Shown piece after piece: positions 1-47,281 of a DNA stretch of 64,000 bases. The notes beneath the pieces are model-generated. The model saw only the letters and a program-made list of their open reading frames with translations, made no database searches and was not told the DNA's origin. Made by a program: the position numbers and the translations under genes. This stretch comes from Anaerolineae bacterium (lineage in GTDB: Bacteria > Chloroflexota > Anaerolineae > JAAYZQ01): contig DAOTXL010000128.1 of NCBI GenBank assembly GCA_034435455.1, positions 21,653 through 85,652 on the forward strand, in the 5' to 3' direction. How positions within the stretch are numbered: the stretch's first letter is position 1; each line of letters begins with the position of its first letter.

Positions 1-908
1 ACCTTGACGGTGACGTCGGCAGAGCCGATGAAAAGCCGCCCGACTGTGCCGTCACTCACCGCTTCTGGCGAGCGGGGCAGGCACCGCAGCCGGACATCGA
101 GGCGCCTGGTAGGGCGCATCCGGCCGGGAATGGTCAGCAGGTCCCCCCGCTTCAGATCCCCGACGGCCACGTTGGTCAGATTGACGGCGACCCGTGTGCC
201 GGGCCTGGCCGTCTCGACCCGGCGTTTGTGGGTTTCCAGGGTGCGGATGCGGCTTTTTATGCCGGCAGGCAAAATCTCTACCTCCTGGCCGACGGTCAGC
301 GTGCCGTCCAGGCAGGTCCCCGTCACCACGGTGCCGAACCCGGCGATGCTGAAGGCCCGGTCGATCCACAGCCGGGGGCGTCCCAGGTCGGGGCGCGGCG
401 CCGTCTCCGACAGCACCTGCTCCAGCGCGGCCACCAGATCGGCCAGGCCCTGTCCGTTGACCGCCGAGACAGGGACCAGAGGGGAGTGGGCCAGGGTTGT
501 GCCGGCCAACGCTTCCCTGACCTCCTCGATAGCCAGATCTCGGAGCTCCGCGTCTACCAGATCGGTCTTGGTAATGGCCACCACCCCTTTTTGCACCTGG
601 AGCAGGTCCAGGATGGCCAGGTGCTCCCAGGTCTGGGGCATCATCCCATCGTTGGCCGCGACGACCAGCAGGGCGGCATCAATGCAGCCCACCCCGGCGA
701 GCATGTTCTTGAGAAACCGCTCGTGGCCCGGGACATCCACAATGCTGATCTCCTGGCCGCCGGGCAGGCGGAGCCAGGCGAACCCCAGGTCGGTGGTCAT
801 GCCCCGCGCCTTTTCTTCCGGCAGGCGGTCGGGGTCAATGCCGGTCAGCGCCTTGACCAGGCGCGACTTGCCGTGGTTTACATGTCCGGCTGTGCCTACA
901 ACGTACAT
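1..908 (-). CDS. selB: Selenocysteine-specific elongation factor SelB, N-terminal GTPase domain plus domain II. Truncated by the window start; start codon ATG at 908-906.
   Basis: Minus-strand translation starting MYVVGTAGHVNHGKS...DRLPEEKARGMTTDLGFA...DVPGHERFLKNMLAGVGCIDAALLVVAANDGMMPQTWEHL...IDRAFSIAGFGTVVTGT is collinear with E. coli SelB (MIIATAGHVDHGKT...DRLPEEKKRGMTIDLG...IDRAFTVKGAGLVVTGT). The reading frame is open to position 1. Not in the ORF track because it has no stop within the window. Confidence 0.85.
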   Translation of the reverse strand, partial: MYVVGTAGHVNHGKSRLVKALTGIDPDRLPEEKARGMTTDLGFAWLRLPGGQEISIVDVPGHERFLKNMLAGVGCIDAALLVVAANDGMMPQTWEHLAILDLLQVQKGVVAITKTDLVDAELRDLAIEEVREALAGTTLAHSPLVPVSAVNGQGLADLVAALEQVLSETAPRPDLGRPRLWIDRAFSIAGFGTVVTGTCLDGTLTVGQEVEILPAGIKSRIRTLETHKRRVETARPGTRVAVNLTNVAVGDLKRGDLLTIPGRMRPTRRLDVRLRCLPRSPEAVSDGTVGRLFIGSADVTVK

Positions 909-919
909 TTCTTTGCCAA

Positions 920-1011
920 AGAGGGCGGAGGGAATCGAACCCACCCTGGCTTGCAGCGCAAGCCCAGCTCACGATTTTGCAGACCGTGGGGAACCCAGTT
1001 CCATCGCCCTC
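920..1011 (-). tRNA. Class-II-like tRNA gene (about 92 nt) with anticodon GCA (Cys), long variable arm, candidate 6-bp anticodon stem and U discriminator. Possible tRNASec-like tRNACys / selC-like element.
   Basis: Folded by hand on the minus strand. 7-bp acceptor GAGGGCG/CGCCCUC. D hairpin GGAAC-UGG-GUUCC. Anticodon stem CACGGU/AUCGUG with loop C-U-GCA-A-A (U33, purine 37). Variable arm GGCUUGC-GCU-GCAAGCC (7 bp). T arm GUGGG-UUCGAUU-CCCUC (canonical T loop, one U-U mismatch in the stem). Discriminator U at 920. CCA not encoded. Lies 11 nt upstream of the selB ATG. Confidence 0.5.
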
Positions 1012-1035
1012 AAAGACAGGGGTAGGATGGCCTTT

Positions 1036-1105
1036 TCAGCCATCCGGGGCAGGCTGGAAGGCCTGCCCTACCGGGCCATCCGGGGCAGGCTGGAAAGCCT
1101 GCCCC
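1036..1105. repeat. Two tandem near-identical hairpins, about 34-nt period (GCCATCCGGGGCAGGCTGGAAGGCCTGCCC). Likely a tandem terminator for mop, or a structured spacer between mop and the tRNA-like gene.
   Basis: Direct repeat catccggggcaggctggaaggcctgccc appears twice with 1-2 substitutions. Each copy is a GGGCAGGC/GCCTGCCC stem with a 6-nt loop. Confidence 0.55.
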
Positions 1106-1109
1106 ACTC

Positions 1110-1319
1110 TTACGCTTTGACCGGCAGGACGTGGACCGCTTTGATGAACAGCTCTACCTCGTCGCCGACCTCGAGCTCCATCTCCTCCAGCGATTCGACG
1201 GTAATGACCGAGCTCATCACCGATTCGGCCGGGATGACGAGCTTGATCTGGGCCATCACGTCGCCGCGCTTGATGGCGGTCACCTGGGCCTTCAACCGGT
1301 TCCGTGCACCGACCTTCAT
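1110..1319 (-). CDS. Molbindin (Mop / TOBE-domain molybdate/tungstate-binding protein), 69 aa.
   Basis: MKVGARNRLKAQVTAIKRGDVMAQIKLVIP...GDEVELFIKAVHVLPVKA fits the single TOBE/Mop domain pattern. GGAGGTG RBS upstream of the ATG. Confidence 0.8.
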   Translation of the reverse strand: MKVGARNRLKAQVTAIKRGDVMAQIKLVIPAESVMSSVITVESLEEMELEVGDEVELFIKAVHVLPVKA

Positions 1320-1421
1320 GTTTTTTCACCTCCGTTCATCCTGGCCCGGACAGGCCGGAACCGAAAACTACCCACTTGCGCACCAGCCCTTGCCCGTGCG
1401 CGGCATGGCTGGTGAGGTGCG

Positions 1422-2576
1422 TCAGGCCGCCCCTTTCGCCAACCGGCGCACGGCGCCGATGGCCGCGTCCACCTCTGCGGCCGTATTCCACGCGGCCAAC
1501 CCAAAACGCACCGTGCCTGTCGGAAAGGTGCCCAGCGTCTTGTGCGCGGCGGGGGCGCAGTGCAGCCCCACCCGGCACAAAATCCCATACTCCTCGTCCA
1601 GCCGCAGGCCGACCTCAGAAGGCTCCAGGCCGGCAATGTTGAAAGAAACGGTGGCCGTCTGACGGGATGCGTCCAGGGTCCCATACACGATCACCCCGGG
1701 GATCGCCCGCAGACCATCGATCAACCGCTGCGTCAGCGCCATTTCGTGGGCGCGGATCGCCTCTGTGCCCTGTTGCTCGATCCAGCGGATGCCGGCCTCC
1801 AGCCCGGCCAGGCCAACGGCGTTGAGCGTGCCGCTCTCGCAAGAGTCGGGCAAAAAGTCGGGTTGTTCCTCTTGCTCCGAGCGGCTGCCGGTGCCCCCCC
1901 GCTTGAGCGGGTTCAGGAGCGAGGGGTTCACCCGCTCGCCGATGATCAGGCCGCCGGTGCCCATCGGCCCGTAGAGCGACTTGTGCCCGGTGAAGGCGAG
2001 CAGGTCAATGGCCTCGGCCTCCATGTCTATCGGGAGGGCCCCCGCTGTTTGCGCGGCATCGGCCAGCAGGAGCAACCCGTGGCGGCGGGCGATCAGCCCC
2101 ACCTCCGCCACCGGCAGGAGGGTGCCCACTACGTTGGACGCATGGTTGAGGATGATCATCCGGGTGTCGGGCCGGATCGCCGCCGCGATGGCGGCCGGAT
2201 CGAGGACCCCTTCGGGTGAGCAGCCGACCACCGTGACCCGGACCCCCTGGCGCTCAAGGGCGCGGAGAGGGCGCATGACCGAGTTGTGCTCCATACTGCT
2301 GGTGATCACATGATCGCCGGGGCGCAACAGGCCGCCCATCGCCAGGTTGAGCGCCTCGGTGGCGTTTGCCCCGAACACCACCCGCAGCGGGTCGGGCGCA
2401 CCCAGCAGCCGGGCCACCGCTTCACGCGCGGCATAGACGATGCGAGCCGCCTCCACCGCCAACCGGTGCCCGGACCGGCCCGGATTCGCCCCGACCTGGT
2501 CCAGGTAGTGGACCAGGGCCTCGGCCACGCCGGGCGGTTTGGGCCAGGAGGTAGCGGCGTTGTCAAAGTAGATCAT
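1422..2576 (-). CDS. Class V aminotransferase: cysteine desulfurase / selenocysteine lyase family (384 aa).
   Basis: MIYFDNAATSWPKP...TSSMEHNSV...AFTGHKSLYGPMGTGGLI (PLP lysine) ...RVGLHCAPAAHKTLG (active-site Cys). The ATG overlaps the upstream TusA-like stop (ATGA coupling). Confidence 0.85.
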   Translation of the reverse strand: MIYFDNAATSWPKPPGVAEALVHYLDQVGANPGRSGHRLAVEAARIVYAAREAVARLLGAPDPLRVVFGANATEALNLAMGGLLRPGDHVITSSMEHNSVMRPLRALERQGVRVTVVGCSPEGVLDPAAIAAAIRPDTRMIILNHASNVVGTLLPVAEVGLIARRHGLLLLADAAQTAGALPIDMEAEAIDLLAFTGHKSLYGPMGTGGLIIGERVNPSLLNPLKRGGTGSRSEQEEQPDFLPDSCESGTLNAVGLAGLEAGIRWIEQQGTEAIRAHEMALTQRLIDGLRAIPGVIVYGTLDASRQTATVSFNIAGLEPSEVGLRLDEEYGILCRVGLHCAPAAHKTLGTFPTGTVRFGLAAWNTAAEVDAAIGAVRRLAKGAA

Positions 2577-2785
2577 GGCCTTGTGATGATCAACTTGAAC
2601 TCGTCGTCCACCGGTTCGACCTGGACCTTGAGGCCGGCACCCTCGGCCATGCGGCGCACATTCTCGCGCGAGGTCACCGTGTCTACCAGGACCTCGATGG
2701 GGAACCGGGCGGCGTTGATGGCGTTTCTGGCCAGGATGACCGGCTGGGGGCACGACAGGCCACGAGCATCAACCAGGTGAGACAT
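2573..2785 (-). CDS. TusA/YedF-like sulfur (selenium) carrier protein, 70 aa.
   Basis: MSHLVDARGLSCPQPVILARNAI... carries the CPxP motif of the TusA/SirA/YedF family. Immediately downstream of the YedE-like gene, matching the yedE-yedF pairing. Confidence 0.8.
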   Translation of the reverse strand: MSHLVDARGLSCPQPVILARNAINAARFPIEVLVDTVTSRENVRRMAEGAGLKVQVEPVDDEFKLIITRP

Positions 2786-2787
2786 AG

Positions 2788-3909
2788 TTACCCTCCTCTT
2801 TGCTTTTCGCGCATAGTAAAGCCGATGAGCAGGCAGATCACCAGGCCCAGGATTACGGCAGCCATGCCGGCCGGGGTGAGACCGCCTGTCTGCACCGCAC
2901 CCTCGACCACTTTGTCCGGGCTGCCCGCCAGCGCCCAGTTGTGGGCAAACCCCGCCCCGACGATCATGCCCAGGACAAATACCGCGGCGTCGCCATCCCC
3001 TTCGCCCGAAAGGAACAGTTGTCGCCCCGGGCAGCCACCCGCCAGGGCAAAGGCCAGCCCGGCCAGTGCCATGCCCAAAAAGTTCCACAGGTGGTTGCTG
3101 TGGGCCACCGGCTGGCCGGCAAAGCCGAATTTGACCTGCCCCAGGATCAGGTTGGTGACAAAAGCCACCACCAGCAACGCCCCCACGCCGCTGATGAGGT
3201 GAAAATCGCGCATCAGGATCACGTCGCGGACGGCACCCATGGTGCAAAAGCGGGTGCGCTGGGCCAGAAAGCCGATGACCAGCCCCACCGCCAGGGAGAT
3301 GAGCAGGGGTGCATGTTGCGAGCCCGGCCCGCTCTGGCTGAAAAAGATCGGGCCGTCCTGGCTGAACTGCGGCCGGAAGAGGAGGAGCAGCAGGAGGCCC
3401 ACCATGATCAGCGGCATCACCCAGCCGACAGCGGTGTGGGTCTTGTAGCTGCGGCCCAGGTTGTAGCCGGACTTGAGGAACCAGACGCCGATGGCAATGC
3501 CGGTTGCCAGCCCGGCCAGGGCCAGGATGGCGTTCAGATCGCCGCCGGTCAGGCGCAACAAGGCCCGCCAGGGGCAGCCCAGGAAGGCCAGGGCCCCGAT
3601 CATGGCCAACATGCCCAGGACAAAGCGCACGATGGGCGCGGAGCCGGCACGGGCCTTGAACTCGCCAAACAGGTACGCAGCGACCATGGCCCCCAGGACA
3701 AAGCCGATGATCTCGGGCCGGATGTACTGCACCAGGCTGGCGCGGTGGAGCCCCAACGCCCCGGCAATGTCGCGCTCAAAGCAGGCCACGCAGATGCCCA
3801 TGTTCTTGGGGTTTCCGGCGTACTGCAAGAGCGGGGCCAGCAGCCCGATGACCGCCCCGGCCAGGATGATGCCCCACCGCGAGGCAAAAAAACGGGTCAA
3901 CTTGGACAT
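2788..3909 (-). CDS. YedE/YeeE family membrane transporter (putative selenium/thiosulfate transport), 374 aa.
   Basis: Polytopic membrane protein with the MGICVACF motif typical of YeeE/YedE. GGAGG RBS before the ATG at 3909. Confidence 0.8.
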   Translation of the reverse strand: MSKLTRFFASRWGIILAGAVIGLLAPLLQYAGNPKNMGICVACFERDIAGALGLHRASLVQYIRPEIIGFVLGAMVAAYLFGEFKARAGSAPIVRFVLGMLAMIGALAFLGCPWRALLRLTGGDLNAILALAGLATGIAIGVWFLKSGYNLGRSYKTHTAVGWVMPLIMVGLLLLLLFRPQFSQDGPIFFSQSGPGSQHAPLLISLAVGLVIGFLAQRTRFCTMGAVRDVILMRDFHLISGVGALLVVAFVTNLILGQVKFGFAGQPVAHSNHLWNFLGMALAGLAFALAGGCPGRQLFLSGEGDGDAAVFVLGMIVGAGFAHNWALAGSPDKVVEGAVQTGGLTPAGMAAVILGLVICLLIGFTMREKQRGG

Positions 3910-4315
3910 GATGCTTTCCTCCCTCGATAAATATTCCCGCACACCCCTCAGCCCCCGTTGCTGTAGAGTGCGACGCGGTCATCAAAAAAGCCGCCGCCAG
4001 CACACACCGGCAGCGGCCTGAGAGCATGGAGCACGTCCGTTCAGGATCGGACCTCCCTGCCGCCCTCCAGAAGGTGCAGGCACCCCAGTATGCACCGACC
4101 GGTACGCCGGTTTGAGCTTCAGGTTCTCCAGCCGCACATCCTCGATACGCACACCTTCCTGAGCAGGTCAGGGTACAACCAATCTATAACGAATAGCTAT
4201 GGTAGCTATATTGTGAGTATATTTTACCAGAGGGGCGGGGGATTGTCAAATGACCGGGGACCGATGGACAATGGCGGATGGCCGATGGCTCATGGATAGG
4301 TTCCCGCTGTCCGGG

Positions 4316-4555
4316 TCAGGGTTCGTCGGCCAGGAACATGCTCAATTGTTGCTGGTTGCCGGCCACGTTCAGTTGCTGCACCTGCAGTTCGGCGGCGTTG
4401 AGGGCGCTGTCGCAACGGTGGGCCAGGCACATCCCCCGCTCATAGAGGGCAATGGCCTCCTCCAACGTCAACTCCCCTTCCTCTAGGCGGCGGACGGTCT
4501 TTTCCAGTTCAGCAAAGGCCTCTTCGAATGTGAATTTTTCTATGTCATTCTCCAT
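4316..4555 (-). CDS. xseB: Exodeoxyribonuclease VII small subunit.
   Basis: 79 aa, MENDIEKFTFEEAFAELEKTVRRLEEGELTLEEAIALYERG. Confidence 0.85.
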   Translation of the reverse strand: MENDIEKFTFEEAFAELEKTVRRLEEGELTLEEAIALYERGMCLAHRCDSALNAAELQVQQLNVAGNQQQLSMFLADEP

Positions 4556-5783
4556 CTTGTCCTCCGTTTCTAGCTATAGCCTTGAATTCTCCATCGTGGA
4601 CCCGAATGGCCAGGGCGTCGCCGGCCTGCACCTGGACCACCCGGCGCACCACAGCCCCGCTATCGGCGCGGCGGACGATGGCGTAGCCGCGTTCCAGCGT
4701 CGCCAGGGGGCTGAGGGCGGCCAGCCGGGCTTGAAACCCGGCCAGGGCGGAGCGGTGCAGCGCCAGGTTGTGGTTCAGGGCGCGAGCGGCTTGCCGGGTC
4801 AGGTCGTCCACCTGCTGGCGGTAGAAGGCCACACGGGTCTGGGGCGAGAGGCGCTGCAGGGCACGCTGCTGCTGCTCCAGCATCCGACGCGCCTGGCGCA
4901 GGCGGCGCTCCAGGTTCTGCCCCAGGTAGCGGCTCCAGGCCGCCATGCGTTGCCGCAACTCGGCCTGGTCGGGGACGGACAGTTCGGCAGCGGCGGAGGG
5001 GGTCGGGGCCCGCAGGTCGGCCACAAAGTCGGCGATGGTAAAGTCGGTTTCGTGGCCTACCCCGCTGACCACGGGGTGGCGGCAGGCGGCTATTGCCCGC
5101 GCCACCGCCTCGTCGTTAAAGGCCCACAGCTCCTCCAGCGAGCCGCCTCCCCGCACCAACAGGATGATGTCCAGGTCGTCGCGGGCATCCAGGGTGCGCA
5201 GTGCGGCGGCGATCTGCGGGGGGGCCATCTCGCCCTGAACCAGGGTCGGGGCCAGCAACACGCGGACCAGTGGATAGCGGCGGCGCAGCACATTTAACAC
5301 GTCGCGCAGAGCAGCTGCCTGGGGGGAGGTGACGATCCCCAGCACGCGGGGGAAGGGGGGCAACGGCTTTTTGCGGGCGGCGTCGAACAGGCCCTCGGCC
5401 TTGAGCCGGTCGCGCAACTCCTCGAAACGGGCATGCAGGTCGCCCAGGCCGGCCGGCTGCAGGCGGTCCACATAGAGCTGGTAGCGCCCCTGAGCGGGAT
5501 AGAGCGAGATGTGACCGTGGGCCAGGGCCGCCACGCCCTGTTTCGGCTGCCAGGCCAGTTGCTCTGCTGCCGTCCGCCACATGATGCAACTCAGCGTGGC
5601 GTTGGCATCTTTCAGGGTGAAATAGAGGTGCCCGGCCGACGACCGGGTCCAGTTCGAGATCTCGCCGGTCAGCCACAGGTCCTGCAGCGTCGCATCGTCC
5701 TCCAGCACTTTTTGGATGTGCTGGGTTAATCCACTTACAGTCCAGACCCGGATATTGGGGGTTGGGGATTGGAAATGGGTCAT
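4545..5783 (-). CDS. xseA: Exodeoxyribonuclease VII large subunit.
   Basis: 412 aa. OB-fold N-terminus (SGEISNWTRSSAGHLYFTLKD) and catalytic core. Overlaps xseB by 11 nt. Confidence 0.85.
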   Translation of the reverse strand: MTHFQSPTPNIRVWTVSGLTQHIQKVLEDDATLQDLWLTGEISNWTRSSAGHLYFTLKDANATLSCIMWRTAAEQLAWQPKQGVAALAHGHISLYPAQGRYQLYVDRLQPAGLGDLHARFEELRDRLKAEGLFDAARKKPLPPFPRVLGIVTSPQAAALRDVLNVLRRRYPLVRVLLAPTLVQGEMAPPQIAAALRTLDARDDLDIILLVRGGGSLEELWAFNDEAVARAIAACRHPVVSGVGHETDFTIADFVADLRAPTPSAAAELSVPDQAELRQRMAAWSRYLGQNLERRLRQARRMLEQQQRALQRLSPQTRVAFYRQQVDDLTRQAARALNHNLALHRSALAGFQARLAALSPLATLERGYAIVRRADSGAVVRRVVQVQAGDALAIRVHDGEFKAIARNGGQDGE

Positions 5784-6730
5784 GGGCTGTTGGCCCTTTT
5801 CACGGCGCGGACAATGGCTTCGGCCACGACTTCGGCGGCATAGGCCCCGATGAGATTCACATCGGCCCGCTTCTGACCGGTGGCCAGGGCAAAGAGGGTA
5901 TCGCCGTCGAACAGGGTGTGGGCCGGGCGGATGGCCCGCGCCAGGCCGTCGTGGGCCATCTGGGCCACCTTGTTGGCCTCCTCTTTGGTCAGGCGGGCGT
6001 TGGTGGCCACAACGCCGATGACGGTGTGGCTGCCGGCGAAGCGCAGGACCGTCTTGCCGACCAGGCCCTTCATCGTCGCCAGGGTGTCGGCAAAGCCGCT
6101 GCCGGTCAGTGCCCGCGCCCCGGCCAGGATCTCCCCCGTGCGCGGGTCTACGACATCGCCAAAGGCATTGACGGCCACGAGGGCGCCTGCGACCAGGCCG
6201 CCCCCCAGGTTGACGCTGGCCGTGCCCAGGCCCGATTTGCTGGCGTGGCCCGGCCCCAGCACCTTGCCGACCGTGCAGCCGGTCCCGGCGCCGACGCGCC
6301 CTTCGGCCACCGGGCCCTCTGTGGCTGCCTGGCAGGCGGCGTAGCCCATCGCCGCGTCGGGGCGGATGCCGGCATCGCCCACGTCCAGGTCGAACAGGAT
6401 GGCGGCCGGGACGATGGGCACCCTGGCGACCCGGGCATCAAAGCCGATGCCCCGCTCCTCCAGCCAGCGGACGACCCCACTTGCCGCGTCCAGGCCGAAG
6501 GCGCTGCCCCCGGCCAGGAGCACCCCGTGGACCCGTTGCACCAGGTGCATGGGCCGCAGCAGGTCGGTCTCGCGGGTGCCGGGTGCGCCGCCGCGCTGAT
6601 CCACCCCCCCCACCGCCCCCTCCGGCGGACAGAGCACAACGGTACAGCCGGTCATCGCGTCGGCGTTGGTAGCGTGTCCCACGCGGATGCCGGGCACGTC
6701 GGTAATGGCATTGTACCACGGTTTAGCCAT
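5780..6730 (-). CDS. P1/S58 family peptidase (DmpA / L-aminopeptidase D-Ala-esterase/amidase-like).
   Basis: 316 aa with GHATN...GCTVV...GTGAT-like motifs. AGGAGG RBS. Confidence 0.7.
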   Translation of the reverse strand: MAKPWYNAITDVPGIRVGHATNADAMTGCTVVLCPPEGAVGGVDQRGGAPGTRETDLLRPMHLVQRVHGVLLAGGSAFGLDAASGVVRWLEERGIGFDARVARVPIVPAAILFDLDVGDAGIRPDAAMGYAACQAATEGPVAEGRVGAGTGCTVGKVLGPGHASKSGLGTASVNLGGGLVAGALVAVNAFGDVVDPRTGEILAGARALTGSGFADTLATMKGLVGKTVLRFAGSHTVIGVVATNARLTKEEANKVAQMAHDGLARAIRPAHTLFDGDTLFALATGQKRADVNLIGAYAAEVVAEAIVRAVKRANSP

Positions 6731-6743
6731 CCCTTTCCTCCTC

Positions 6744-7952
6744 CTACGCTTTACGCTTTACGCTCAACAACAAGGCCACCACCCGTTCCACGATCCGCCG
6801 GGCAACCTCCTCCTTGGGCAGGAGAGGGAGCTCGGCCACACTGCCGTCGTCGCCGAGAAGGGTCACCTGGTTGGTGGCTGCACCGATGGCCTGTCGGGCG
6901 TCGTTGGCGACGATCAGGTTCAGGCGTTTGCGTTCCAGCTTTTCCCGGGCGTTTTCCAGCAGGTTTTCCGTCTCGGCGGCAAAGCCGACGATGATCTGGT
7001 CGGTGCGGCGCACGTTGGCCACTTCGGCCAGGATGTCGGGCGTGCGCACCAGCTCCACCGTCAGCCCGGCCTGGCTCTTTTTGATTTTGTGCCCGGTGGC
7101 TTTCGCCGGGGCAAAGTCGGCCACCGCGGCGGCCATGAGCAGAGCATCGGCGGTGGGCAGGGCGTGCAGTACGGCGTCGCGCATCTGCCCGGCCGTCTCG
7201 ACCGATACCAGTTCGGTGCCAAAGGGGGCGGGCCTCTCGACGGTGCTGATCAGCGTCACCTGAGCGCCGTGATCGCGGGCGGCGCGGGCCAGGGCGTAGC
7301 CCATCTGCCCCGAAGAGCGGTTGCCGATGAAGCGCACCGGGTCCAGCGGTTCCCGCGTGCCGCCGGCGGTGACCACCACCCGCCGCCCGGCCAGCGGTCC
7401 GCGCCGGGCCAGCACCCAGCAGGCGGCATCCAGGATCTCGTCCGGTTCGGCCATGCGCCCCACCCCCGAGGCTCCTGAAGCCAGCCGTCCCTCTTCCGGG
7501 CCGATGAGGGTCACGTCGCGCCGGGCCCGCAGGCGGGCGAGGTTGTCCTGGGTCAGGGGGTTGGTCCACATGTGGCTCTCCATCGCCGGGGCGAGGAGGA
7601 TGGGCGCTTCGGTAGCCAGGGCGGTGGTGGTCAGCATATTGTCGGCCAGGCCGGCGGCCAGCCTGGCGATGGTGTTGGCCGTGGCCGGGGCGATGATCAG
7701 CAGGTCGGCGCGCCGGGCCAGGCTGACATGGCCGATTTCGGTCTCGGCCAGCAGGGTGAACATCTCGGTCACCACGGGGCGGTGGGTGAGGGCCTGAAAG
7801 GTGAGGGGGGCCACGAACTGGCGGGCGGCCTCGGTCATCACCACATCCACCACCGCCCCGGCCTTGACCAGACCGCTGCACAACACGGCCGCTTTGTAGG
7901 CGGCGATGCCGCCGGTAACGCCCAGGACGATCGATTTGCCTTGCAAGATCAT
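6744..7952 (-). CDS. coaBC: Bifunctional phosphopantothenoylcysteine decarboxylase / phosphopantothenate-cysteine ligase.
   Basis: MILQGKSIVLGVTGGIAAYKA (flavoprotein domain) plus a C-terminal CoaB domain. The ORF-track start at 7967 is a TTG. The ATG at 7952 has a GAGGGAAGG RBS. Confidence 0.9.
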   Translation of the reverse strand: MILQGKSIVLGVTGGIAAYKAAVLCSGLVKAGAVVDVVMTEAARQFVAPLTFQALTHRPVVTEMFTLLAETEIGHVSLARRADLLIIAPATANTIARLAAGLADNMLTTTALATEAPILLAPAMESHMWTNPLTQDNLARLRARRDVTLIGPEEGRLASGASGVGRMAEPDEILDAACWVLARRGPLAGRRVVVTAGGTREPLDPVRFIGNRSSGQMGYALARAARDHGAQVTLISTVERPAPFGTELVSVETAGQMRDAVLHALPTADALLMAAAVADFAPAKATGHKIKKSQAGLTVELVRTPDILAEVANVRRTDQIIVGFAAETENLLENAREKLERKRLNLIVANDARQAIGAATNQVTLLGDDGSVAELPLLPKEEVARRIVERVVALLLSVKRKA

Positions 7953-7963
7953 AACCCCTTCCC

Positions 7964-8779
7964 TCAACCCCCCTTATCCGATCCCCTCTTGCCCCGATTC
8001 ATCTCCCAGATCAGCCGCAGCCCTTCCAGCGTCAGCCAGGGGTCTAGGGCATCCACCACCTCTGTTTCGGCAGCGATGAGGGGAGCCAGCCCGCCGGTGG
8101 CGATGACCTTGAGCGCCGGCCCCAACTCGGCCCGGTAGCGGGCCACCAGCCCTTCCACCAGGCCGACGTAGCCGAACAGCAGGCCCGACTGCATGGCCTG
8201 GACCGTGTTTTTGCCGATGGCCGAGGGGGGGCGGACCAGTTCGATGCGCGGTAGCCTGGCGGTGCGCTGAAACAGAGCTTCGGCAGCGATGCCGAGGCCC
8301 GGCGCGATGGCCCCCCCCAGATAGTCGCCTTCGGCGGAGATGAGGTCAAAGGTGGTTGCCGTGCCCAGGTCCACCACGCAGGCCGGCCCCCCGTAGCGAT
8401 GGTAGGCCGCCACGGCGTTCACCACCCGGTCGGCGCCGACCTCGGCCGGGTTGTCGAGGCAGATGCGCACGCCGGTGTGCACCTGGGCATCCACCACCAG
8501 CGCCTGCTGGCCAAAGTAGCGTTGGGCCAGCTTCTCAAAGGTGCCGGTCAGCGGCGGCACCACGCTGGCCATGATAATCCCCTCCACCGCCTGCGGCTCC
8601 TGGGCCGCGCGCTCGAACAGGTCCAGGAGAAGCATGGCATACTCATCGGCCATTTTCTGATGGTCGGTGGCGATGCGCCAATGGCTGATCAGTTCCTTGC
8701 CCTGGTACAGGCCCATCACTACATTGGTGTTGCCGATATCTATGCAAAACAGGGACACAGGCCCTCCTTTCGCTGTCAT
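7964..8779 (-). CDS. coaX: Type III pantothenate kinase.
   Basis: VSLFCIDIGNTNVVMGLY...DLGTATTFD motifs of CoaX. Internal ATG start at 8779. Confidence 0.85.
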   Translation of the reverse strand: MTAKGGPVSLFCIDIGNTNVVMGLYQGKELISHWRIATDHQKMADEYAMLLLDLFERAAQEPQAVEGIIMASVVPPLTGTFEKLAQRYFGQQALVVDAQVHTGVRICLDNPAEVGADRVVNAVAAYHRYGGPACVVDLGTATTFDLISAEGDYLGGAIAPGLGIAAEALFQRTARLPRIELVRPPSAIGKNTVQAMQSGLLFGYVGLVEGLVARYRAELGPALKVIATGGLAPLIAAETEVVDALDPWLTLEGLRLIWEMNRGKRGSDKGG

Positions 8780-18232: not shown

Positions 18233-18719
18233 CTTCTTCCTCCTTCCTGCTTTTTTCGGCAGCCAGAGCGACGGCCAGCTCGACCGCCTGGGCCGGCGTG
18301 TGGGCCCGAACGACCGCCTCCACCGGTTGCCCGCTTCGACTCAGCTCCCAGGTAGCCAGCCCCACCACCGGCCGGCCCATCTTGAGCGCCAGCCCGATCT
18401 CCGACAGGGTGCCGTAGCCGCCGCTCACGGCGATCACCGTATCGGCGGTACGGACGACGAGGGCGTTGCGAGCCTCGCCCAGGCCGGTGGCGATGGGCAG
18501 ATCCACGAACGGGTTAGCCTCGTGGCGGTCGGGGCCGGGCAGGATGCCCACCGTGAGGCCACCCTCCTCCTTTGCGCCCCGGCAGGCGGCCTCCATCACA
18601 CCCCCCCGCCCGCCACAGACCAGCACCGCCCCGCGCCGGGCGACCTCACACCCTACCTCGCGGGCCAGGGCCGCTATCTCTGGGTTACAACTGGCCGAAC
18701 CGATCACGGCGATAAACAT
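18204..18719 (-). CDS. LOG / TIGR00725 family (Rossmann-fold nucleotide-binding) protein.
   Basis: MFIAVIGSASC...VLVCGGRGGVMEAACRGA...VSGGYGTLSE. Confidence 0.7.
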   Translation of the reverse strand: MFIAVIGSASCNPEIAALAREVGCEVARRGAVLVCGGRGGVMEAACRGAKEEGGLTVGILPGPDRHEANPFVDLPIATGLGEARNALVVRTADTVIAVSGGYGTLSEIGLALKMGRPVVGLATWELSRSGQPVEAVVRAHTPAQAVELAVALAAEKSRKEEEDDRSKATLW

Positions 18720-18753
18720 GGTCACGCTCTGCGGGGCGGATAGCCGATCCGCT

Positions 18754-19335
18754 CTACGATAGCCTGGCCTCGAACAGGGTCGTATAGACCGCGCCGCCGG
18801 GCCGCAGGTCGCTCTTGATGTACGAAATGGCCGTGGCGGTCATCTGACCGAGGGAGCCGACGGTGTTGGCCGCCACCACCTCGCCGATCTGGCGCACCTC
18901 CGACCGGGAGGCGTACTTTTGCACCCGGCCAAGGGTCAGGTGTGGGCTGAAGGGCCGCTTTTCGGTGGGGAAGCCCAGCGGGGTGACATGGGTCTCGACC
19001 ATCTGTTGCAGGCGGGCCAGCGCCCCCGACGGTTCCTGCACGCCCACCCACACCACGCGCGGCTGGCGGGCATTCGGGAAGCAGCCCAACTCCCCCACGG
19101 TGAAGGAAAAGGGGCCCCACCCGGCGGCGGCCCGGGCCAGGGCAGCCTTGACAGCCTCCACCTTGTCCTCCGTCGTGTCGCCCAGGAACTTGAGGGTCAG
19201 GTGGATGCCGTCCGGCTGCACCCAGCGCACGCTGCGCGGCGGCACCTGATCGCGGAGGCGTTCCTGCAGGCGGCCCAGGCTCTCCTTCAATTCCCGGCTC
19301 AACTCGATGGCGATGAATGTGCGCAGGGTCCCCAT
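18754..19335 (-). CDS. thpR: RNA 2',3'-cyclic phosphodiesterase (2H phosphoesterase, LigT/ThpR).
   Basis: Two HxTx motifs (HLTLKF, HLTLGR). Confidence 0.8.
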   Translation of the reverse strand: MGTLRTFIAIELSRELKESLGRLQERLRDQVPPRSVRWVQPDGIHLTLKFLGDTTEDKVEAVKAALARAAAGWGPFSFTVGELGCFPNARQPRVVWVGVQEPSGALARLQQMVETHVTPLGFPTEKRPFSPHLTLGRVQKYASRSEVRQIGEVVAANTVGSLGQMTATAISYIKSDLRPGGAVYTTLFEARLS

Positions 19336-19338
19336 CCC

Positions 19339-20202
19339 TTATCCCTTTCTTTGTGAGTCATGGCTCCCCAGTTTCAACACCCGCCAGGCATTTCCCCCCA
19401 GCATCCGCCGCAGGGTAGCGGTCGGCATCCGGGCTGCCTCCATCCGCTGCATCAGGCGCTCTGGCGCGATCAGGGGGTAATCGGTGGCGAACAGGACCTT
19501 GCCCGGGGCCCACCGGGCAGCCAGTTCAAAGATGTCGTCCTGGTAGAGGTACGGGGAAGCGGCCGTATCGTAGTAGACGTTCTTCATAATGTGGGCGATC
19601 TCGGGCATCAGCTCGTAAAAGATCGTCCCTCCTCCCCAATGGGCGCAGATCAGCGTGGCCTGGGGGAACAGGCGAGCAAAGCGGATCACCTCATCGGGCG
19701 TGACGGTGCCCTTGCCGGGGTAGAGGTGGCCCACCGGCTCGCTACAATGGGTCAGCAGCACCAGGCCGCAGGCCATAGCCGCCTCGACGATGGGGGCCAT
19801 GACCCGTTCGTCGTCCAGGCGGTAGCCCTGGCCGTCGGGCATCAGTTCGCCGATGCCGCGCAGGCCCCCTGCCGCGCAGCGTTCGATCTCCCGCACCGCT
19901 TCAGCGCCCGCCGCCGGATTGACGATGCCAAAGCCGATGAGCCGGTCGGGGTAGCGAGAGACGGCTTCCATGACATAATCGTTGTCCTGTTGGCACAGCC
20001 TCATATCCCGCCAGCCAAAGCCAAAGGCCACGGCCTGGGTCACCCCGGCCCGGTCCATAGCGGCGATCAGCTCCTCGGCCGAGCTAAGGCGGGCCTGGGG
20101 ATTGGCGTACAGATCGCGGAACCAGGCATCGCGGATCAGGTACTCATCCCGCCGGGCGATGATCTCTGGTGCCGTGATGTGCGTGTGAAAATCAATGATC
20201 AT
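19339..20202 (-). CDS. Amidohydrolase-2 family metal-dependent hydrolase.
   Basis: MIIDFHTH...LLTHCSE...ATDYPL TIM-barrel amidohydrolase motifs. Confidence 0.7.
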   Translation of the reverse strand: MIIDFHTHITAPEIIARRDEYLIRDAWFRDLYANPQARLSSAEELIAAMDRAGVTQAVAFGFGWRDMRLCQQDNDYVMEAVSRYPDRLIGFGIVNPAAGAEAVREIERCAAGGLRGIGELMPDGQGYRLDDERVMAPIVEAAMACGLVLLTHCSEPVGHLYPGKGTVTPDEVIRFARLFPQATLICAHWGGGTIFYELMPEIAHIMKNVYYDTAASPYLYQDDIFELAARWAPGKVLFATDYPLIAPERLMQRMEAARMPTATLRRMLGGNAWRVLKLGSHDSQRKG

Positions 20203-45862: not shown

Positions 45863-47281
45863 ATGGCTGTCGTCCAACCTAAAATTTCTGTTCTGACGCC
45901 GGAGCAGATCGAGCAGGTTCACCATTACGCACTGGGCATCCTGTCGTCAGTGGGGGTGCGGGTGGATTCGGAGCGGGCCAGGCGGCTGCTGGCTCAGGCC
46001 GTCGGACCGGCCGGCATTGCCGGCGATCGGGTGCGCATTCCCGGTGAACTGGTCGAGTGGGCCCTGGCGGCTGCCCCCCGTGCGGTGGAGGTCTATGACC
46101 GGCGGGGCAACCTGGCCTTCCGCCTGCCGGACCGGGCGCGGTTTGGCATCGGCGTGACGGTCCTCTACTACCAGGACCCTGAGACCGATGCGGTGGTGCC
46201 CTTTGGCCGGCAGCATATGGCGGCCATGGTCCGCCTGGGTGGGGCGCTGCCCAATTTCGATGTTATTTCGACCGTAGGCATCGTTCAGGACGTGCCGCCA
46301 GAGGTGTCGGACCTGTACGCGGCGCTGGAGATGGTTGCCAATACGGTCAAGCCGCTGGTCCTCCTGGTCTCCGATGAGGAGGCCTTTCCTGTGGTGCTCG
46401 ACCTGCTGGAAGAACTGCATGGCGACCTGTCTTCTCGCCCGTTCGTCATCCCCTATTTCAACCCTATTACGCCGCTGGTGATCAACCGGGGCACGGCCGA
46501 CAAGATGGTGGCGGCCATTGAGCGCGGCCTGCCGTTCATCTATTCCAACTATGGCATGGCCGGCGCCTCTACGCCGATCACCCCGGCCGGGACGCTGGCC
46601 CTGCTGACGGCCGAACTTCTGGCCGGCCTGGTCCTCAGCCAGTTGATCCGGGAGGGTGCGCCGGTGATCCTCGGCAGCCTGCCGGCATTCTTTGACATGA
46701 GGGGCATGGGCAGCTTTTACGATCCGGCGAGCTATGGGGTGGACCTGGCCTGTGCGGAGATGATGGCTCACTATCGCCTGCCCCACGCCGGCACGTCGGG
46801 GGCGGGCATGGGCTGGGGGCCGGACCTCATCGCTGCCGGGCACCAATGGCTCAACCACCTGGTGAGCTGCATCGGCCAGGTGGGATTGGTCCCCTTTGTG
46901 GGCGATAATTTGGGGTCCAAGGCCTTCTCGCCGGCCATTATCGTCTATGCCGACGAGATCATCGCCCAGGCCCGGCGGTTTGCCCAGGGCTTTTCCCTGG
47001 ATGACGAGGCGGTGGCCCTGGAAGAGATCGCGCAGGCCGGGCCGGGCGGCAGCTTTCTGACCTCAGGCCTGACGCTCAGGCTGTTCCGCCGCGCCTGCTA
47101 CCGCAGCGACCTCTTTCCCATCCTGACCCTGGAGGAGTGGCAGGCCAGAGGGTGTCCGCGGGCCGACGATCTGCTGCGGCAACGTACCCGGCAGTTGCTG
47201 GCCGAGGCAGAGGCCCCGGCCGACCATGCCGGGCTGCTCGCAAGCGGCGAGGCTTTCATCCGTAGCCGGGCGGTCCGTTGA
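45863..47281 (+). CDS. MttB-superfamily methyltransferase (non-pyrrolysine member; trimethylamine / glycine betaine:corrinoid methyltransferase-like).
   Basis: 472 aa with COG5598/MttB-like TIM-barrel architecture and no in-frame TAG. AGGGAG RBS. Confidence 0.7.
   Translation: MAVVQPKISVLTPEQIEQVHHYALGILSSVGVRVDSERARRLLAQAVGPAGIAGDRVRIPGELVEWALAAAPRAVEVYDRRGNLAFRLPDRARFGIGVTVLYYQDPETDAVVPFGRQHMAAMVRLGGALPNFDVISTVGIVQDVPPEVSDLYAALEMVANTVKPLVLLVSDEEAFPVVLDLLEELHGDLSSRPFVIPYFNPITPLVINRGTADKMVAAIERGLPFIYSNYGMAGASTPITPAGTLALLTAELLAGLVLSQLIREGAPVILGSLPAFFDMRGMGSFYDPASYGVDLACAEMMAHYRLPHAGTSGAGMGWGPDLIAAGHQWLNHLVSCIGQVGLVPFVGDNLGSKAFSPAIIVYADEIIAQARRFAQGFSLDDEAVALEEIAQAGPGGSFLTSGLTLRLFRRACYRSDLFPILTLEEWQARGCPRADDLLRQRTRQLLAEAEAPADHAGLLASGEAFIRSRAVR

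Follow-up and report, generated by a model that had tools for sequence, protein, structure and literature searches.

In a 64,000-nucleotide stretch of DNA from an Anaerolineae bacterium (assembly GCA_034435455.1, contig DAOTXL010000128.1), here called the window and always meant at its full length, the minus strand carries a real and conserved tRNA gene, more than a product of chance, directly in front of selB, the gene of the selenocysteine (Sec) elongation factor. The data support its identification as a tRNASec-like tRNACys, in which the cysteine identity set, a U discriminator at position 73 (U73) together with the anticodon GCA, is carried on a class-II body. It is of the selC* tRNACys/tRNAReC kind, here in the form of a Chloroflexota variant with a 7/5 acceptor/T branch; as that family is already known, the element is not categorically new. 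By analogy with published relatives, we consider it rather probable that this tRNA is co-transcribed with selB, charged with cysteine and carried by SelB to UGA codons marked with a SECIS (selenocysteine insertion sequence) element, in such a way that UGA-encoded proteins would continue to be made.

The window tRNA and its link to selB

The elements on which the argument depends are the following.

920-1011, minus strand: tRNASec-like tRNA-Cys(GCA), from ARAGORN, Rfam at the E-value threshold and covariation over 12 distinct homologues
909-919, minus strand: spacer UUGGCAAAGAA of 11 nt, from the tRNA 3' end to the selB start, read from the sequence
1-908, minus strand: 5' part of selB, 302 codons, from translation; the gene continues past the window edge

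According to ARAGORN, this tRNA-Cys(GCA) is the single tRNA in the 64-kb window, with its anticodon at position 32. The molecule is 92 nt long and CCA is not encoded. Its acceptor stem of 7 bp (GAGGGCG/CGCCCUC, first pair G1:C72) is followed by A8 and U9, by a D arm of 13 nt (GGAAC-UGG-GUUCC, 5 bp and 3 nt) and by C26; the anticodon stem has 6 bp (CACGGU/AUCGUG) and the loop reads C-U-G-C-A-A-A, the variable region of 25 nt includes a 7-bp stem (GGCUUGC/GCAAGCC, in the core GGCUUGC-GCU-GCAAGCC), and the T arm, GUGGG-UUCGAUU-CCCUC, contains a U50.U64 mismatch. The acceptor/T branch is of the 7/5 type, 12 bp in all, with A8 unpaired. A preliminary description, made from the sequence alone, had proposed this complete cloverleaf at the same place, and ARAGORN, direct reading and covariation all agree with it; the U discriminator, the anticodon loop, the 7-bp variable stem and the UUCGAUU T loop that it listed are likewise found in the sequence.

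At gathering thresholds, Rfam has no match anywhere in the window. Below them, the top family for the window tRNA is tRNA-Sec (RF01852), matched over its full length with 41.0 bits (E 4.5e-7), under a gathering score of 47, which means that annotation based on Rfam misses this gene. The general model RF00005 does not match it at threshold, nor does it match the corresponding tRNAs in three related loci (L045, L047 and L049), while ordinary tRNAs in L045, taken as a control, score 66-75 bits. A class-I tRNACys identity was also considered and is excluded by the 25-nt variable arm, the 6-bp anticodon stem and the lack of an RF00005 match at threshold. When the sequence is folded alone, the minimum free energy structure departs from a cloverleaf and lacks significance (z = -1.27); what supports the fold are the tRNA finders and the comparative data, and not single-sequence folding.

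The comparative data are extensive. In the protein database, SelB homologues split into two groups, both of Chloroflexota/Anaerolineae, in agreement with the Chloroflexi-like genome initially supposed: type A, comprising the window protein and P0001-P0018, and type B, comprising P0019-P0120. Every type-A locus examined has a long tRNA-Cys(GCA) that precedes selB by 3-46 nt in the same orientation, namely in L044 (97% SelB identity), L045/46 (79%), L047 (69%), L049/50 (65%) and L051/53 together with L054-56 (56%), as well as in the metagenome loci L064, L072, L074, L079, L081 and L087. The linkage between tRNA and selB therefore persists while SelB identity drops from 97% to 55%. Around type-B selB, for which three loci were sampled, no tRNA lies within 10 kb.

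The 12 distinct type-A tRNAs, all of 92 nt, can be aligned without gaps, with a mean column identity of 92%. Under the 7/5 cloverleaf, 94.3% of the cells are paired, compared with 44-54% in slid-partner controls. Two-sided changes are observed in the acceptor, at 2:71 and 5:68 (each A-U/G-C), in the variable arm, at pairs 49:63, 50:62 and 52:60 (alignment columns), and in the T stem, at 50:64, and all stem substitutions either preserve pairing or restore it at 50:64. The acceptor and T-stem pairing, whose support in homologous loci had been raised as a point to verify, is upheld by these compensatory changes. The window and four other sequences have U.U at the T-stem pair 50:64, six have U.G and one has G.U, and the pair is never Watson-Crick in the 12 tRNAs. 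An alternative branch of the 8/4 type with a bulge, the form published for deltaproteobacterial selC* and for Chloroflexi tRNASec, was tried for the window type and fails, as it leaves A8.C unpaired in 12/12 sequences, pairs G49 in just 6/12 and loses pairs; under the 7/5 model, G49:C65 is formed in 12/12. No variation is seen among type-A tRNAs in U73, the anticodon loop, the D arm or the T loop. As for the 6-bp anticodon stem claimed at the outset, its six stacked pairs are present in all sequences and pair 25:41 occurs as four pair types across both tRNA groups (the second is described below); the additional C:G pair does not vary, and thus fits the fold and offers no covariation proof.

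Downstream, selB starts with the ATG at 908-906 and its product begins MYVVGTAGHVNHGKS. The spacer of 11 nt has no GGAGG-like Shine-Dalgarno sequence, as had been pointed out, and leaves no room for a promoter; in fact, neither promoter-like nor terminator-like sites were found in the window between 700 and 1500, and hence none between tRNA and selB. The rest of the gene could be recovered from L001 (GCA_964559445.1), which is 100% identical to window positions 1-3309 and extends 8.9 kb past the window edge: at L001:2402-4420, it encodes a protein of 672 aa. Pfam recognizes in it GTP_EFTU (PF00009), D2 (PF03144), Beta-barrel_SelB (PF25461) and the SECIS-binding winged helices WHD_2nd (PF09106) and WHD_3rd (PF09107). 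The Sec pocket described for Aquifex aeolicus and Escherichia coli SelB consists of Phe, Asp-Arg, His and Arg (PMC4605307), and these residues are kept, as DLGF, IDRAF, ETH and GTRVAVN, in type A, type B and outgroups. Judged by its domains and pocket residues, the SelB encoded downstream of the tRNA is a complete, bona fide Sec elongation factor, as the retained DRAF motif had indicated. Altogether, the identity set, RF01852 as the top, if sub-threshold, Rfam match, the conserved linkage and the selenium operon around it favor the early proposal of a tRNASec-like tRNACys paired with SelB, and not an ordinary tRNACys.

Sister tRNAs, UGA-interrupted genes and known relatives

A scan of Joint Genome Institute (JGI) metagenomes with the conserved string of the D arm and anticodon arm, in which G or U was allowed at position 34 (K), returned 30 loci, all of them with GCA and none with a UCA variant. 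Eight are of the window type and the remainder constitute a second group (sister group 2; L062-L091, all from metagenomes). Its 19 distinct sequences are also of 92 nt and their 5' 42 nt are nearly identical to the window type. They have one extra nucleotide between the T stem and the 3' strand of the acceptor (U in 16/19) which, lying opposite A8, plausibly gives rise to a 13-bp branch (8/5 or 7/6); furthermore, the variable arm differs and CCA is usually encoded. Six of these tRNAs were scored and reach 52.8-55.5 bits, above the gathering score of the Rfam tRNA-Sec family. U73 and G34-C35-A36 are invariant in the 31 distinct sequences of both groups (12/12 and 19/19).

The surroundings of the sister tRNAs are rich in selenium genes: YedE, a Se_S_carrier fusion, a Carb_kinase-like gene, the tRNA and SelD, with TusA-DsrE or HGD-D nearby. 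selD adjoins the tRNA in at least 10 group-2 loci (e.g., L066 12265-13538). In all 11 selD genes (ten from group-2 loci and one from the type-A locus L049), an in-frame TGA occupies the position of the catalytic residue, in the context GAG-TGA-ACK (AAK in L049). The sole group-2 locus with selB beside the tRNA is L077, where the order at 5535-8724 is selD(UGA), tRNA, selB. Among the relatives with window-type tRNAs, the selD of L049 (~18375-19441; SAAG-U-AAK), with UGA at the catalytic site, lies 8.4 kb from the tRNA, and L053 encodes at 4725-5204 a Prx/AhpC-like protein with GFF-U-PFC, 2.8 kb from the tRNA. The presence of UGA-containing selD and Prx-like genes near these tRNAs implies that relatives of the window locus do use UGA recoding. 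Gene callers had split or truncated both of these UGA-interrupted genes of L049 and L053.

How does the window tRNA compare with what is already known? The selC* tRNACys, with U73 and the anticodon GCA or UCA, are cysteinylated by cysteinyl-tRNA synthetase (CysRS) and were described in Firmicutes, Thermodesulfobacteria, Nitrospirae and Proteobacteria (Mukai et al., 2017, PMC5389517); the group was renamed tRNAReC by Vargas-Rodriguez et al. (2018), and the tRNACys(GCA) of D. nigrificans is carried by SelB and not by EF-Tu, Cys being inserted at UGA followed by SECIS (summarized in PMC11415595 and PMC13582414). The window tRNA has in common with this family U73, GCA, the long variable arm and the 6-bp anticodon stem, tRNA-Sec as the top covariance model and the occurrence alongside Sec or selenium genes, and it would presumably share its job, that is, providing Cys at SECIS-marked UGA through SelB. 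It departs from it by the 7/5 branch of 12 bp with A8 unpaired, where selC*/tRNAReC have an 8/4 branch with a bulge or a 13-bp branch, by the 13-nt D arm and by the sub-threshold tRNA-Sec score. Moreover, its host is Chloroflexota (Anaerolineae-like), a phylum outside the 2017 selC* list (PMC5389517), the list used for this comparison.

A closely related arrangement exists in Syntrophobacterales and Desulfobacterales, where selC* precedes a second selB (selB*) and sometimes also cysS* (PMC5389517; PMC7609411). As in the window, selB comes there immediately after the tRNA in the same orientation; these deltaproteobacterial operons differ in having UCA, A1:U72 and, in the Desulfobacterales subtype, cysS*, in place of GCA, G1:C72 and no downstream cysS*, and the window operon includes in turn yedE, tusA, csd and mop. 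With sister group 2, the window tRNA shares the acceptor, the D arm, the anticodon arm, U73, GCA, the length of 92 nt and the selenium neighborhood, and the sister tRNAs differ in their 13-bp branch, their variable arm, the usual CCA and their place beside a UGA-interrupted selD instead of selB. As for bacterial tRNASec, common traits are the long variable arm, the 6-bp anticodon stem, the A36-A37-A38 context, the likely transport by SelB and the 12-bp branch of the phylum; nevertheless, tRNASec has UCA, G73, an 8/4 or 8/5 branch and a D arm of 6 bp and 4 nt, unlike the GCA, U73, 7/5 branch and 5-bp/3-nt D arm described here. Finally, the tRNASec(GCA) of Aeromonas salmonicida also combines GCA with a body of the Sec type and works with SelB, but, according to PMC11415595, which cites Mukai (2016), it inserts Sec at UGC and keeps its Ser/Sec identity, whereas the window tRNA has the Cys identity set.

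The selenium operon and its surroundings

Upstream of the tRNA and on its strand, the window contains the following features.

1025-1105, minus strand: hairpin spacer, with two 36-nt repeat units (hairpins 1082-1105 and 1047-1068) and a third hairpin at 1025-1045
1110-1319, minus strand: TOBE/Mop-like protein of 69 aa (PF03459, E 1.1e-12)
1422-2576, minus strand: class-V aminotransferase, cysteine desulfurase/selenocysteine lyase-like (PF00266, E 4e-91)
2573-2785, minus strand: TusA/YedF-like sulfur/selenium carrier (PF01206, E 1.8e-13)
2788-3942, minus strand: YedE-like membrane protein, Sulf_transp (PF04143, E 7e-20)

The Mop/Csd/YedF/YedE selenium cluster noticed at the beginning is thus recognized by Pfam, and the order yedE-tusA-csd-mop is the same in L044, L045, L047 and L049. 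Between mop and the tRNA, the two tandem hairpins of the preliminary description are real, although the account was incomplete, since there is a third one and the number of repeat copies varies: the 36-nt unit, each copy of which forms a GC hairpin of 8-10 bp, is present twice in the window and 6.0 times in L044 (7030-7246), whose SelB is 97% identical, and was found neither in L045 (79% SelB identity) or more distant relatives nor elsewhere in the window. The spacer folds with -60.3 kcal/mol (z = -4.7), and it shows neither a U tract nor a terminator call. We regard these hairpins as a structured spacer of variable copy number, outside the tRNA system proper.

On the 3' side of selB, the window genome has an MFS gene on the opposite strand, where relatives have HGD-D or TOBE. 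A 424-aa gene of the HGD-D family that follows selB in relatives has been deleted (137 nt at L001 4329-4466 in place of 1404 nt at L044 9301-10705), and the C-terminus of the window SelB has been rewritten, being 28 aa longer than that of L044 (672 vs 644 aa). Several genes recur by selB or by the tRNA across the loci, namely HGD-D, a BcrAD_BadFG activator, TOBE, a TusA-DsrE fusion, Se_S_carrier (PF11823) and a Carb_kinase-like gene (L044 9326-10600; L047 11969-14946; L049 9664-9885 and 17678-18271; L075 1744-3054). To our knowledge, the pair formed by HGD-D and its activator has no recognized role in selenium metabolism.

The remaining window genes (xseAB, coaBC, coaX, gcvP, peptide ABC transporters and similar ones) are not Sec-related, and a Pfam search on about 30 window open reading frames (ORFs) returned only housekeeping and transport genes. 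At 45863-47281 on the plus strand, there is a gene of the MttB family (trimethylamine methyltransferase-like), followed by an MFS transporter; as its reading frame is uninterrupted, it is presumably a non-pyrrolysine member.

Some observations concern SelB loci other than those of type A. Type-B selB is abutted upstream by an ORF of 392-422 aa without Pfam match (L057 8780-9976, L058 8714-9982 and L060 8745-9923). No shared housekeeping orthologues were available on the fetched loci for calibrating the divergence between type-A and type-B SelB. P0123, a type-A SelB in the cluster of P0014, is labeled “Bacteroidetes bacterium” in NCBI; its cluster mates and neighbors look like Chloroflexota, which suggests that the contig is possibly mis-binned. 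A scan of genome contigs with SelB returned distant SelB loci only, mostly of Actinomycetota with a normal tRNA-SeC, and these served as controls: ARAGORN reports a true tRNA-SeC in 27 of them, and calls the window tRNA Cys. In L031 (Blastococcus capsensis), the selC position upstream of selA-selB is occupied at 4531-4626 by a 96-nt tRNA with the anticodon CUA, labeled “tRNA-Pyl” by ARAGORN, which presumably corresponds to a UAG-reading tRNASec. Such tRNAs reportedly figure in the work of Mukai from 2016.

Proposed function, alternatives and significance

The role that we find rather probable for the window tRNA can be outlined as follows. The tRNA would be transcribed on the minus strand together with yedE-tusA-csd-mop and selB, and tRNA-processing RNases would excise it, leaving a selB mRNA with an 11-nt leader; CCA would be added post-transcriptionally. 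CysRS would then load Cys, reading U73 and the GCA anticodon, and the tRNASec-like body, by means of its variable arm, 6-bp anticodon stem, compact D arm and non-Watson-Crick 50:64, would steer the molecule to SelB instead of, or besides, EF-Tu. SECIS-bound SelB would bring the Cys-tRNA to an in-frame UGA, with Cys incorporated in place of Sec and a G34.A mismatch tolerated. The advantage would be that a shortage of Sec-tRNASec does not stop the synthesis of UGA-encoded proteins, in the first place of SelD, which is itself needed for making Sec. The sequence data themselves establish the gene, its fold, the identity elements, the conserved link to selB and the association of the sister group with UGA-interrupted selD; charging, SelB delivery and UGA decoding are attributed to the window tRNA from its published relatives.

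Several data weigh against this role. GCA has no canonical pairing to UGA, and the 12-bp 7/5 branch, devoid of an 8-bp acceptor, is the type canonical for EF-Tu; an 8-bp acceptor stem is important for the function of D. biacutus selC* and for E. coli SelB binding (PMC5389517; PMC7609411). The tRNA-Sec score is sub-threshold (41.0 vs 47 bits). In the window plus 9 kb, neither a UGA-containing gene nor selC, selA or selD (tblastn with four actinobacterial SelA and one SelD) was found, and no in-frame TGA of the window flanked by coding signal marks a convincing gene for a selenoprotein. Even in the relatives, the hairpins located 3' of UGA in L049 selD and L053 prx are plausible as SECIS and no better than shuffled sequences.

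A more elaborate version, which we put forward as tentative and would on balance doubt, holds that a tRNAReC-type tRNA lost the thirteenth base pair, is now 7/5 and sits in the same transcript as SelB. Either the type-A SelB would be a dedicated “SelB*” paralogue, with a private Cys-at-UGA channel beside the Sec channel, or a lineage without selC and selA would run SelB and SECIS on Cys, in a Sec-free decoding of UGA as Cys.

If that loss of the thirteenth pair in a tRNAReC ancestor had instead returned the molecule to EF-Tu, it would be an extra Cys isoacceptor serving UGU and UGC, with the variable arm and the position before selB as leftovers. We judge this unlikely. In its favor, EF-Tu ordinarily takes a 12-bp branch of the 7/5 type (PMC5389517), the anticodon is cognate for Cys codons, and the window tRNA has diverged from the tRNA-Sec model while sister group 2 has not. 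Against it stand the place before selB, kept while SelB diverges to 55%, the tRNASec-like 5' half frozen across both groups, and the non-Watson-Crick 50:64 in 12/12 sequences, which would by inference weaken EF-Tu binding. Besides, the tRNASec of Chloroflexi and Actinobacteria has a 12-bp (8/4) branch (PMC5389517), so that a 12-bp ligand of SelB is normal in the phylum and Chloroflexi SelB already takes such a tRNA. The preliminary description had also left room for a tRNASec with a Cys anticodon. Such a tRNA would be serylated by seryl-tRNA synthetase (SerRS) and converted by SelA, and SelB would bring it to certain UGC/UGU (or UGA) codons for the insertion of Sec. SerRS relies chiefly on a long variable arm, the association with SelB and selenium genes would agree with this reading, and such GCA tRNASec exist according to PMC11415595, which cites Mukai 2016; we hold it nonetheless to be quite improbable here, since U73 is invariant and never G73, U73 plus GCA being the CysRS identity set (PMC5389517), since the D arm of 5 bp and 3 nt is not the 6-bp/4-nt arm that SelA reads in tRNASec (PMC7609411), and since tblastn with the four actinobacterial SelA queries found no selA in about 50 fetched loci.

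The same description had considered a tRNA mimic acting as a regulatory leader of selB. Such a cis-acting module, which would define a near-leaderless mRNA through RNase P/Z or sense Cys or Se without any adaptor role, could take advantage of the short distance to the selB start (just 3-46 nt) and, in the window, of the lack of both a Shine-Dalgarno sequence and an intervening promoter. However, neither the anticodon loop nor U73 nor the T loop varies, and the sister copies precede selD or other genes and encode CCA, which makes this option very improbable in its strict form; processing and adaptor roles can, in any case, coexist. Lastly, the scores below the Rfam thresholds, the T-stem U.U mismatch and the non-significant single-sequence fold might recall a decaying tRNA pseudogene, or a tRNA-like fold arisen by chance in GC-rich DNA, a notion that the comparative data already contradict, with 92% mean column identity while SelB drops to 55%, and to which we attach practically no weight.

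tRNAReC is among the few natural examples in which a mismatch between codon and anticodon is programmed, and in which the selenocysteine factor carries the tRNA of a sense amino acid. The locus adds to the family a Chloroflexota lineage and a 7/5, 12-bp architecture with a mini D arm that is missed at standard covariance thresholds; as this architecture falls under those of tRNA-Sec, surveys filtered by score would under-count the family. Outside Deltaproteobacteria, it would moreover be a second and independent instance in which tRNA and selB are co-transcribed, a point in favor of a joint dosage of tRNA and factor.

In turn, the pairing of the sister tRNA with UGA-interrupted selD (11/11) provides a testable rationale, namely that SelD could be made with Cys before Sec exists; if true, the idea of bootstrapping SelD without selenium would be directly testable through this pairing. 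Finally, these data carry a warning for annotation: in such genomes, an in-frame UGA may mean Cys or Sec.

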